From positions 1-41,011 of IMG/VR virus record IMGVR_UViG_2563366930_000002: DNA of 41,011 nt; one strand, 5' to 3'. The DNA is from a virus (Duplodnaviria > Heunggongvirae > Uroviricota > Caudoviricetes). This document shows, piece by piece, positions 37,689 through 40,312 of this stretch; the stretch's first letter is position 1, and the number at the start of each line of letters is the position of its first letter. The notes beneath the pieces are model-generated. The model saw only the letters and a program-made list of their open reading frames with translations, searched no databases and had not been told where the DNA came from. A program made the position numbers and the translations under genes.

Positions 37689-38738
37689 TCATTTTATCAA
37701 AAATGGCCCACCGACTGTCCTCGATAGCCAATGGCCAATTTTATCTGATACATATACACAAATACAGGTATATATGATTGCGCAGATAGGATTTGGAATG
37801 GTCACGCTGAAGCCTATGATTGCTAAAGCCATAGGGATAAATAATTTGGTGATATACTCCATTCCACATATGTTAAGAGTATTTCTTCCAGCTCTTACAA
37901 TAAAGTCATTCCCACAAATTATTTTTGCTATAAAGATATTAAATATTATCAAGCCTACCGTGGTGATAATAGTATTAATAGCTTGAATATAACTACTTGA
38001 TATTATGTCTGCATTGAATATTGAGATAATCTTAAAAAGCAAAGGTTTCTGGTTAAGGAGTTGATACGCACTCATTATCGCGGTAATTGAGAAGACAATG
38101 AAACCAATTTTAGATTTTCCAAAAAACCTGTCACGTGTTAATTCTAAAAACATACATCTACCGAGAGGCAATAACCACCAGTATGCCATAGCGGAGTCTA
38201 TGTTCCAAAACCATTGAGGATCTAGTAATGGGTTATGATTGAGCACTGTTTGTGACAACATGAACGATAATAGTGATATGATTAAAATCACTATATTGTT
38301 CTTGACTATTTCTTTAAAGATTGCATCAATTGCTATTATAACAAAAAGGCAGTTTATAAACCATATTGTTCCTACAAATTGGTTGTTTCTAACACCATAT
38401 ATTATATCATAAATGTGGCTATATATATAATCAATCGTCTCACCTGAGTTAATTGTGTTTATTATTAATATAGTAAATGCAAAAGTGAAATATGGAATCA
38501 TTAATCTGTAAAACTTTGACTTGATATAATCGAAAATAGATAAGTCATTTTTTTTGATAGTAAAAAAACCAGCAGCGAAAAAGAATAGTGGGACGTGATA
38601 ACTAAAAACAAAAGGATACAATTTGCCAGCCCCCAAACCAAGGTGACCTAAATATATAGCAAAAATACCGAGAAATTTTAAAGCATCAACCCAATCATGC
38701 CTTGTTTTTCTGTTGTTGTCGATTTTGTTATTATACAT
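37689..38738 (-). CDS. Integral-membrane acyltransferase (acyltransferase family 3, OafA/Oac-like O-antigen acetylase)
   Basis: 349 aa with about 10 hydrophobic segments; N-terminal motif RHDWVDALKFLGIFAIYLGH; about 28% GC. Confidence 0.85.
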   Translation of the reverse strand: MYNNKIDNNRKTRHDWVDALKFLGIFAIYLGHLGLGAGKLYPFVFSYHVPLFFFAAGFFTIKKNDLSIFDYIKSKFYRLMIPYFTFAFTILIINTINSGETIDYIYSHIYDIIYGVRNNQFVGTIWFINCLFVIIAIDAIFKEIVKNNIVILIISLLSFMLSQTVLNHNPLLDPQWFWNIDSAMAYWWLLPLGRCMFLELTRDRFFGKSKIGFIVFSITAIMSAYQLLNQKPLLFKIISIFNADIISSSYIQAINTIITTVGLIIFNIFIAKIICGNDFIVRAGRNTLNICGMEYITKLFIPMALAIIGFSVTIPNPICAIIYTCICVYVSDKIGHWLSRTVGGPFLIK

Positions 38739-39454
38739 TTAAAGTAGGCTCTCCAGTTTTGTGTGATTTTCAAACACTCATTGCAAATATGAATGCCTGA
38801 AAGTTTATGATTATTAATCAACGAGTTCAATATTAATTTATTATTTTTCAAAGTCGCACTATATAGGCATTTACTTCCGCAGTACCACCGATAGTATCGA
38901 TATCAAATCAGCCTGCGGCCGCGATAACTTTCGTAACATCCTGCCAGCGGCTTTGTTGAATAAATCAGGTTCAAGACAATCGTCTCTGCATCAGGTTAGA
39001 GTCTCAGGCAATACACACTCTTTCTGGCATAGCTGCCACTCTCGCACCATGGCCATAGCCTTTACGATCTGCATACTCACCAGACCAGAGCCCGCTCCCT
39101 TTCGGGGAGGAATGAGGGCTCTGATATTCTTTTGCCGTAGTTCATCGTGAAACCGTCGGATGTCATTTGGCCTGAACTACCAGTGGTGTAGGCCATTCAA
39201 TATCGTATTATATTGAAATATAAATATGCATCAGCTGCACACGGTATATTTCCATGCCAGAAGAAGTATCCTGACGTGAAACATGACTTTGTTGTCAGGA
39301 TTTCATGAGAGCGGTTCAGCAAAAAATGACGAAAATCCTAGTATAGTCGGGTGATGAGCAGTATAGAGGAATGTGTTATAACCAATAAAAGTCCAATTAA
39401 ATTTGTTTTTATTTCTAAGCCCCCCCAAAAAAGGAGGTGGCTTTTAAATTTAAT

Positions 39455-40312
39455 TCAAATTTTATAATGGCTCTTAGCAAAATTTGCTACTATGTTATTT
39501 ATTGCGATTGGGGTTGAAACAACAATTGCTGTTATAAGAAGCAAATATGGAATAAAATAAATTCTATTACCAGAAGCATATATGCTTGGTGATAATCCTA
39601 ACATAGATGTTGTGGCAATGGTTCCAATAATCATTGTGGATATGAAAATTGAAGTGACATTAAAATTAAGTGATATTACGGTTGGAAATATAATGAGTGC
39701 TGTAAGTATCATGGCAAAAGACACCCTAAACACGGAGAGTGTCGAGAAAAGATTGCTTTCAGAAAAATGTATGGCTTGAAAAATAACTGGCGGTGTATGT
39801 ATAATATATAGTGTGATCAAGATACAGCAAGAAATTAGAGGGAATATTTTTGTTTTTTTCTTGCATATAATAGTACTGGAAAAAGCTAGTAATGCTGGGA
39901 TAATTGATTTTACAGAAAATAACATATCTGCATATAAGTTAAGTCCAAGCATAGATCTTTGGATTATATTAAAATTACCATACTCTTTAAACCAATGTTC
40001 TATCTCTGCATAATACCTGACTTTATTTCCTGGGCAAGTTGCAATATAAATAATAACTAATAGTGAAATCCCCATCGCATTTAATAATGGTTTTGTATTG
40101 TAATTGTTTGTTTTGCAAAAAATTAACAGTGTGGTGCATAATAATACATTGACTACAGCTATCTGTTCATTGAATGATGATAAAAAAAATAACAAATAGC
40201 AAATTAGAGATTGAGTTTTCTCGTGGTTTTCCATATTGATTTTTCTTATAAGTAGAGAATAACCAATAAATGCAATAGCACTTGGCCACAGATAGTTGGG
40301 TAATGACTCCAA
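39455..40312 (-). pseudogene. Polytopic membrane protein whose 5' end is interrupted by IS1 (possible O-antigen modification protein)
   Basis: Open frame runs into the IS1 terminal repeat; apparent TTG start and first 5 codons are IS1 sequence; an intact gene from internal Met MENHEK with IS1 in its promoter is the alternative. Confidence 0.55.

Follow-up and report, generated by a model that had tools for sequence, protein, structure and literature searches.

The 41,011-nt stretch of viral DNA analysed here (the window) carries, next to its tail fibre genes, what we consider to be the lysogenic-conversion cargo of a prophage of the SfII/SfV/SfIV group integrated at thrW. The cargo consists of an intact oacD gene and a gtrC gene that has been split by IS1 and is most likely inactive, and we give this reading a probability of about 0.88. 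In such modules GtrB (GT2) makes undecaprenyl-phosphate-glucose, GtrA flips this carrier to the periplasmic face and GtrC (GT-C) moves the glucose onto a particular sugar of the O-antigen as it grows. Independently of these steps, the O-unit is O-acetylated by OacD (AT3), whose target in S. flexneri is O-6 of GlcNAc. The proposal of an earlier note on this DNA that the region is an O-antigen-modification module is borne out by the 98.3% identity of its acyltransferase to OacD and by the presence, at the gtrC position, of a membrane protein with a GT-C fold.

Results

Setting of the module in the prophage

The window consists of proA, thrW and a thrW-integrated prophage of the SfII/SfV/SfIV group. 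proA (positions 1-1254, identified by translation) forms the left flank and the tRNA-Thr(CGU) gene thrW (1369-1444, plus strand, located with ARAGORN) the left prophage boundary. The phage integrase gene, also identified by translation, is next after thrW (1459-2622, minus strand), and SfV/SfIV/SfII match the integrase and early region at 96-97% identity. At the far end are a tail fibre gene (35860-36510, Gp53-like_C) and a tail fibre assembly gene (36482-36916, plus strand; Caudo_TAP, E 1.4e-25), which is the last virion gene before the cargo and has annotated equivalents in SfII and in an intact E. coli relative, L001. Both cargo genes lie past these tail fibre genes, just as had been noted earlier.

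What lies beyond IS1 is known not from the window but from a public assembly, L003, which matches 11,557 nt of it (29455-41011) at 100% identity. Past IS1 this assembly continues with gtrC codons 1-133, gtrB, gtrA, attR and the vat island. The module had been assigned to the right end of the prophage; it is indeed on the right-end side, but attR sits approximately 1.9 kb outside the window. The complete cargo would be ordered attR-gtrA-gtrB-gtrC-(IS5 remnant)-oacD-tail genes, with all cargo genes transcribed towards the tail genes. The host is a Vat-island E. coli and not S. flexneri. The module is AT-rich, with a GC content of 31.8% in the acyltransferase gene and 30.3% in the membrane protein ORF, slightly above the figure of about 28% first given for both, compared with 51.3% for everything to its left (1-36916). 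The lowest values in 400-nt windows are 27.5-28%.

The acyltransferase gene is an ortholog of oacD

The acyltransferase gene (37689-38738, minus strand) is intact and encodes a protein of 349 amino acids. In Pfam this protein matches PF01757 (Acyl_transf_3) with 46.9 bits against a cut-off of 31, over residues 15-290, and has no second domain; an NCBIfam search gave no match for it. It is identical to E. coli WP_000282633.1 and shares 343 of 349 residues (98.3%) with SfII OacD (SfII_25), which is equal in length and differs at six residues, while the oacD DNA is 98.4% identical to that of SfII. As in SfII, the gene is flanked by the tail fibre assembly gene on one side and the gtr genes on the other, and it has the same terminator. 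By these comparisons the gene is an OacD ortholog, with a predicted role in 6-O-acetylation. SfII oacD is described as responsible for 6-O-acetylation of GlcNAc, giving O-factor 10 (PMC8973906, PMC9558356).

The original description of the protein as an Oac/OafA-like family-3 acyltransferase stands with respect to AT3 membership and the Oac type. An OafA-type identity (AT3+SGNH) was ruled out, since the fused SGNH domain that characterizes OafA/OafB is absent from these 349 residues; such a fusion adjoins a related cassette in L016. Oac, OacB and OacC of S. flexneri phages and islands are similar in having a single AT3 domain and approximately 330-350 amino acids, in being phage-borne and in acting on O-antigen (PMC9558356), but the window gene is the ortholog of OacD and not of Sf6 Oac.

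A perfect 32-nt palindrome (AAAAAGGCGCAATTAATTGCGCCTTTTT; 37658-37689) overlaps the acyltransferase stop codon and resembles the hairpin of a bidirectional terminator; the same site is annotated as a putative terminator in SfII. Apart from this palindrome, a repeat search found nothing, and Rfam returned only sub-threshold matches centred on the palindrome and, within the tail fibre assembly gene, a match to IS009. With its own terminator, oacD is probably still expressed and active, provided that the host O-unit has an acceptor for it.

Upstream of oacD, the spacer contains a remnant of approximately 100 nt of an IS5/IS1182-family transposase gene (39062-39164, minus strand), annotated by RefSeq in L001 and L009-L011. 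This zone draws thousands of IS5 matches (query positions 2163-2251) and accounts for a bump of 44-45% GC in the spacer. In the alignment, similarity to SfII stops at window position 39175, which on this comparison is the edge of an exchangeable gtrC cassette.

Intact relatives carry a gtrA-gtrB-gtrC cassette

The module is covered at 99.7-99.9% identity in seven complete E. coli genomes, and the annotation of four of them, which was read, shows a 413-amino-acid DUF6056 gene directly after yfdG/gtrA (PF04138) and yfdH/gtrB (GT2). The gtrC gene holds the third position of a gtrA-gtrB-gtrC order in L001, L009, L010, L011 and L003, as do distant homologs in L013 and L016/L017, and gtrA-gtrB-PF19528 arrangements adjoin phage tail genes in Enterobacter and a further E. 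coli lineage. A distant member of the PF19528 family in Sodalis does not adjoin gtrAB.

GtrA and GtrB of the cassette are 98.3% and 99.7% identical to their SfII counterparts, whereas the gtrC protein is unrelated to SfII GtrII (BLASTP E 0.04; hhalign probability 0.5%). Conserved gtrAB combined with an unrelated gtrC is the usual cassette pattern of gtr operons (PMC3688519, PMC7685785). SfII (gtrA-gtrB-gtrII plus oacD) and the present prophage are alike in their integration at thrW beside proA, in the order tail fibre assembly gene, terminator, oacD, IS5 remnant, gtrC, gtrB, gtrA, attR, and in 98.4% DNA identity as far as position 39175. They differ in that SfII has gtrII where this prophage has the unrelated 413-amino-acid PF19528 protein, ISSfl9 in the oacD-gtr spacer rather than IS1 inside gtrC, and an S. 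flexneri rather than a vat-island E. coli host.

No enterobacterial phage with this gtrC was found by tblastn against 50,697 phage records; the matches in phages were only 26-28%, in Oenococcus and Enterococcus phages and an archaeal virus. Identities as gtrI, II, IV, V or X were rejected for want of a tblastn match, insofar as the collection includes those phages. Searches of NCBIfam and of PDB by sequence profile also gave no match for the protein, and no named or characterised homolog of the allele was found.

The gtrC product is a polytopic membrane protein with a GT-C glycosyltransferase fold. Among 28 homologs, with identities down to 20%, D30, W55 and R58 are invariant and D31 nearly so. 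The intact allele matches PF19528 with 60 bits (cut-off 27; E 2.3e-16), a family formerly called DUF6056 and now GT_STM0557_N. STM0557 is a Salmonella locus by which Glc is added to Gal in the O-antigen (PMC3688519). The likeness to the Salmonella STM0557 gtr operon consists in the gtrA-gtrB-gtrC logic and in the intact E. coli protein passing the PF19528 cut-off, with the link resting on the name of the Pfam model. Overall, the intact 413-amino-acid gene most likely encodes a GtrC-type glucosyltransferase.

IS1 splits the gtrC gene

IS1 occupies 40299-41011 on the minus strand, in the same orientation as the gtr genes, with 713 of its 768 bp in the window, which ends 55 nt before the other IS1 end. 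The right end (IRR) begins GGTAATGACTCCAACTTATTGAT at 40299, and the exact 23-nt IRR was confirmed in L003. The element carries insB (40314-40817, minus strand; DDE_Tnp_IS1, E 6e-78) and the insA ORF (40736-41011, minus strand), with Pfam matches for InsA/InsB in L003. One copy of the 9-bp target duplication, which reads CAACTATCT on the coding (minus) strand, is at 40290-40298; in L003 CAACTATCT is present at both flanks of a 768-bp IS1 with exact IRL and IRR. Taken together, the window and L003 display the length of 768 bp, the terminal inverted repeats of approximately 23 bp, insA/insB and the 9-bp duplication that mark an IS1. The order in L003 is gtrA, gtrB, a 142-amino-acid PF19528 N-terminal fragment, IS1, the duplication and the 3' fragment. 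Strains that are 100% identical over the flank do not have IS1, and the insertion is therefore considered recent; NZ_OW967795.1 is an example of this flank free of the element. IS1 has transposed into codon 133/134 of gtrC, making the 9-bp duplication and cutting the first 133 residues off from the other 280. The displaced part comprises TM1, the first periplasmic loop with its invariant DD motif, and TM2-3.

The window retains the 3' fragment of this gtrC-type GT-C glycosyltransferase gene (39455-40298, minus strand), which starts at the final base of codon 133 and continues through codons 134-413 to the stop. It represents the 3' two-thirds of the gene that holds the gtrC position after gtrA-gtrB in the intact relatives, and is 99% identical to the intact allele. 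The fragment is assigned to PF19528 because of this identity, the window ORF itself having no match at E<=0.1. That mechanical ORF (39455-40312, minus strand; 285 amino acids) is hydrophobic and polytopic, and lies upstream of the acyltransferase gene on the same strand. Its TTG start at 40310-40312 is 12-14 nt inside the IS1 end, which agrees with the earlier observation of an apparent start within the terminal repeat. Gene callers give instead a 259-amino-acid product from an internal ATG, and an exact-product look-up matched this version and not the 285-amino-acid TTG-start version. The TTG 'start' is a mechanical artefact of the frame staying open into IS1 and not a real start.

Of the two possibilities raised previously, that IS1 had truncated the gene or that it supplied a promoter and start, truncation is favoured, although the gene is more exactly split, with codons 1-133, gtrB and gtrA past IS1; the supply of a promoter and start is disfavoured. 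Comparison with intact homologs, suggested in the same note, places the missing part at residues 1-133 of 413, beyond IS1. The window copy begins at residue 134 and is without the acidic motif (D30-D31) of the first periplasmic loop, which in GT-C enzymes is the catalytic region. As the displaced N-terminal part carries D30-D31, W55 and R58, the fragment is most likely not a working glucosyltransferase, and glucosylation by the cassette is thus most likely off.

The insertion resembles the inactivation of O-antigen genes by IS elements elsewhere, in being a simple insertion with target duplication in a surface-glycan gene; known cases include IS elements in E. coli O101/O162 and gtrC pseudogenes in Salmonella (PMC7685785, PMC3688519). 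Compared with these, an ordinary 768-bp IS1 with a 9-bp duplication is nothing unusual. For Salmonella gtr operons, cassette-like exchange of gtrC has been reported as well as gtrC pseudogenes (PMC3688519).

Alternative explanations

An open frame extending 14 nt into IS1 and the 259-amino-acid product of the gene callers might suggest that IS1 provides a promoter and a TTG start (or that the internal ATG at 40232-40234 is used), giving a functional shortened protein of 259-285 amino acids that modifies glycans or has a new role. Since IS1 and the fragment are co-oriented, read-through transcripts are conceivable. We regard such a protein as very improbable: it would be without residues 1-133, including D30/D31, W55, R58 and the first GT-C core helices, and the PF19528 score is lost. 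Moreover, a promoter scan revealed no consensus-like promoter spanning the boundary between IS1 and the gene on the minus strand; promoter-like sites numbered 29 versus 16 expected, an excess attributable to AT-rich DNA, and no Shine-Dalgarno-like sequence precedes the TTG or the internal ATG. The insertion is recent, being missing from otherwise identical strains, and so has left no time for a new function to evolve. It is just as hard to credit that the intact protein is no glycosyltransferase but a polytopic O-antigen protein of some other sort, for example a Wzy-type polymerase, a flippase or an O-antigen ligase. Sequence alone is uninformative here, given the lack of NCBIfam or PDB matches and a Pfam family that was long a DUF. 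Against this, the protein comes third in gtrA-gtrB-X operons of several lineages, has the invariant DD in the first loop, like GT-C enzymes, and belongs to a family named GT_STM0557_N after the Glc-to-Gal Salmonella locus (PMC3688519). On operon position, DD motif and Pfam name, Wzy or ligase identities were rejected.

A weightier alternative, although still an unlikely one, is that the whole module is silent in this host, with OacD and GtrC finding no acceptor in its O-antigen and the IS1 insertion being neutral decay of cargo that is not in use. OacD is known to act on the S. flexneri O-unit (PMC8973906), and the host here is an E. coli with the vat island. In other isolates this gtrC allele has independent frameshifts, a nonsense codon and repeat expansions, these disrupted alleles coming from a look-up able to retrieve disrupted genes only, and in strain AR_0061 the acyltransferase gene is interrupted by IS903B. 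In contrast, gtrC is covered at 99.7-99.9% DNA identity in each of the seven complete E. coli genomes that have the module, and in the four annotations read gtrC is an intact 413-amino-acid ORF in every case and oacD is intact in three, which argues for selective maintenance in at least some hosts.

Discussion

The module is ordinary SfII-type O-antigen cargo of a known kind, and as such brings little new biology. Within its coding sequence, gtrC has homopolymers (T7, T8 and A8) as well as a run of heptanucleotides (TTATTTG/TTATTTT), and tract lengths vary in other isolates (T7 to T6, T8 to T7, A8 to A7, and heptamers adding 63 to 105 nt). We think it improbable that the gene is a slipped-strand contingency locus; were it one, E. 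coli/Shigella lineages could toggle O-antigen glucosylation by repeat slippage, and the IS1 insertion would be an additional, less reversible OFF route. Phase variation of Salmonella gtr operons is governed by a Dam/OxyR epigenetic switch, a mechanism that differs from such slippage.

The intact gtrC allele may give the O-antigen of a Vat-positive E. coli lineage a Glc side branch that has yet to be described. Some E. coli O-antigen Glc side branches have been attributed to unidentified gtr genes (PMC7685785), and the intact allele, if characterised, could explain one of them. Furthermore, extraintestinal-type (Vat-positive) E. coli are among the hosts in which SfII-type serotype-converting prophages circulate, and these prophages bring with them the Shigella vaccine-relevant oacD essentially unchanged. 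For annotation, the message is that the 259-285-amino-acid 'membrane protein' is a pseudogene fragment. For the strain itself, the predicted phenotype is that glucosylation by the cassette should be off, while O-acetylation may remain on.

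The prophage and its right-end cargo

The window opens with proA (1-1254), the tRNA-Thr(CGU) gene thrW (1369-1444) and a phage integrase gene on the minus strand (1459-2622). Serotype-converting phages of S. flexneri classically attach at this thrW site beside proA (PMC8973906). Identity to SfV, SfIV and SfII amounts to 96-97% in the early region; across the tail and cargo region, identity to SfII is 98.4% as far as position 39175. By its site and these similarities, the window is an almost whole prophage of the SfII/SfV/SfIV group, in the order attL-int...tail-cargo.

The cargo module follows a gp53-like tail fibre gene and a Caudo_TAP assembly gene, both on the plus strand, the latter ending at 36916. 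(Rfam gave a sub-threshold IS009 match inside the assembly gene at 36709-36885 (+): 52.9 bits, gathering score 117, E 2e-10.) Between this gene and the window end lie two minus-strand ORFs, encoding an acyltransferase of 349 aa (37689-38738) and a polytopic membrane protein of 285 aa with a TTG start (39455-40312), and then the IS1 genes insB (40314-40817; DDE_Tnp_IS1) and insA (40736-41011). The ORFs have 31.8% and 30.3% GC, respectively, compared with 51.3% for everything left of the module (1-36916); the AT-richness described in the earlier note therefore holds, but its figure of about 28% for both genes fits only local minima (27.5-28%). A bump of 44-45% GC in the spacer reflects a remnant of an IS5/IS1182 transposase, of ~100 nt at about 39062-39164, in sequence common with relatives.

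IS1 splits a gtrC-type gene

As had been noticed from the sequence, the apparent start of the 285-aa ORF lies inside an IS1 end: the right end of IS1 (GGTAATGACTCCAACTTATTGAT...) begins at 40299, and the TTG (40310-40312) and first five codons are IS1 sequence. An exact-product look-up of a 259-aa version, read from an internal ATG, led to a 4.85-Mb NCBI scaffold (GCA_000350805.1, KB732326.1; locus L003), which matches window 29455-41011 at 100% identity (11,557 nt, zero mismatches). Beyond the window, L003 continues with the final 55 nt of IS1 and with gtrC codons 1-133, annotated there as a PF19528 fragment of 142 aa that reads into IS1. These are followed, in order, by gtrB (305 aa), gtrA (120 aa), attR in the form of a partial copy of thrW, a remnant of an integrase gene, a gene of the MarR family and the vat autotransporter gene.

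In L003 the IS1 measures 768 bp, is bounded by exact IRL and IRR and has the 9 nt CAACTATCT on both sides; it thus transposed simply into codon 133/134, with nothing deleted. The gtrC gene is split, its putative catalytic N-terminal third being separated from the rest. The insertion is recent, since in two complete genomes with 100% identity across the 7.6-kb right flank IS1 is absent and the gene is whole. The earlier note had proposed that IS1 either truncated the gene or supplies its promoter and start. Disruption is borne out by L003; the second option is disfavoured, as no Shine-Dalgarno-like sequence precedes the TTG and a promoter scan across the IS1/gene junction found no consensus-like promoter. 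That a start can be read within IS1 at all is due solely to the frame staying open for 14 nt.

At the far side of L003 (1534-7300), attR abuts the integrase remnant, the MarR-family gene and the vacuolating autotransporter gene vat. The integrated phage therefore stands in tandem with the vat island at thrW in an E. coli of extraintestinal type.

Identity of the disrupted gene

The whole module occurs without IS1 in seven complete E. coli genomes (99.7-99.9% identity). In all four whose annotation was read, the gene encodes a 413-aa 'DUF6056 family protein' and overlaps the stop codon of yfdH (GT2, GtrB), which yfdG (GtrA) precedes. Pfam assigned the three intact-locus proteins to GtrA_DPMS_TM, Glycos_transf_2 and PF19528 (60 bits, cut-off 27). 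Comparison with these intact homologues, as had been proposed, defines the missing extent: the window ORF corresponds to residues 134-413 (278/280 identical), codons 1-133 lying beyond IS1, and on its own it gives no score against PF19528.

Compared with their SfII counterparts, GtrA and GtrB of L003 show 98.3% and 99.7% identity, whereas the third, serotype-specific gene is unrelated to SfII gtrII, no relationship between the proteins being detectable (BLASTP E 0.04; hhalign probability 0.5%). The left breakpoint of the exchangeable cassette is at 39175. A familiar pattern is that gtrAB stay conserved and the serotype-specific gtrC is exchanged (PMC3688519; PMC7685785). Family members in Enterobacter (42% identity) and another E. 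coli lineage (26%) also follow gtrA-gtrB beside phage tail genes; a Sodalis member is an orphan, and no relatives with tested function were found. The current Pfam name, GT_STM0557_N, points to the Salmonella locus for O:12-2 glucosylation (PMC3688519), and the link of this gtrC allele to STM0557 comes from that model name.

In another E. coli prophage with this type of tail (L016/L017, 1-5188), the cargo consists of an AT3+SGNH (OafA-type) acyltransferase gene, gtrA, gtrB, a 152-aa ORF and a gene for a 26%-identical PF19528 protein. This different arrangement shows shuffling of cargo cassettes at this prophage position.

The intact protein (P0001, 99% identical) was modelled with AlphaFold2 from 28 homologues, with identities as low as 20%; the model is all-helical (pLDDT 92, pTM 0.92). 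The top-probability Foldseek matches were STT3, DPY19 and PimE, none at E 0.001 and with unrelated transporters among the matches, so that this search alone hints weakly at a GT-C fold. In the alignment of these homologues, D30, W55, R58, N134, Y135, P138, E177, P222, R227, G251, S369, P370 and R378 are invariant and D31 nearly so. The first extracytoplasmic loop of GT-C enzymes bears their catalytic acidic residues; in the model D30-D31 fall in this very loop, after helix 3-22 and before helices 30-54.

Lesions in related loci

The same gtrC allele has been damaged independently in other isolates: by T7 to T6 (codon ~121) and A8 to A7 (codon ~152), found by a look-up that could return disrupted genes only and from which frequency cannot be judged, and by T8 to T7 (codon ~12) combined with W60stop (TGG to TAG). 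The loci are L004 (3423-4663), L006 and L007 (1505-2745) and L012 (2151-3454); all are equivalents of window 39455-40298 plus the part beyond IS1. In the window's strain the homopolymers are intact, the A-tract being interrupted by an A-to-G change (K151R). The gtrC-type gene also contains a heptanucleotide run (TTATTTG/TTATTTT), unexpanded in the window (40176-40200). In assemblies from E. coli and 'S. flexneri' (L012 ~2660-2750; proteins P0002-P0008 and P0010) this run is 63-105 nt longer, adding 21-35 residues of ICYLLFV-like repeats within a transmembrane helix. This may be a microsatellite growing in a pseudogene, or else a site prone to slippage.

The AT-rich cargo region (window 36917-37688 and 38739-39454) attracts IS elements. 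Besides the IS5/IS1182 remnant common to all relatives, SfII has ISSfl9, one E. coli has ISEc13 in the oacD-gtrC spacer, another has ISKpn26 between the tail fibre assembly gene and oacD, and in strain AR_0061 IS903B lies inside oacD.

An intact oacD and probable consequences for the O-antigen

The 349-aa protein is a family-3 acyltransferase, as first suggested (Acyl_transf_3, PF01757; 46.9 bits, cut-off 31). It is identical to WP_000282633.1, present in several E. coli genomes, and equal in length to SfII_25, the OacD protein, with 6/349 residues changed (N8S, T12I, T89S, S107N, K142R, A320S). At 37658-37689 a perfect 32-nt palindrome, followed on each strand by T-runs, overlaps the stop codon, at the position of an annotated terminator in SfII. 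According to PMC8973906 and PMC9558356, oacD is responsible for 6-O-acetylation of GlcNAc of the O-antigen of S. flexneri (group O-factor 10) and lies in SfII with gtrII-B-A, between proA and adrA. Since the gene is intact, it is probably functional, if the host offers an acceptor; that oacD works in SfII despite an IS between oacD and the gtr genes suggests that it has its own promoter.

With an oacD orthologue and a gtrC-type gene that follows gtrA-gtrB in relatives, the original reading of an O-antigen-modification module was essentially right, and the module is an ordinary, well-understood kind of prophage cargo. Judging from the Gtr literature, in an intact cassette GtrB would load glucose on undecaprenyl phosphate, GtrA would flip the undecaprenyl-phosphate glucose and GtrC would transfer the glucose to one O-unit sugar in the periplasm. 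In the window's strain, glucosylation by this cassette would be off because gtrC is interrupted by IS1. GtrA and GtrB are still encoded and could supply a different GtrC, should the genome have one. OacD, from an intact gene with its own terminator, would acetylate the O-unit independently of the Gtr enzymes.
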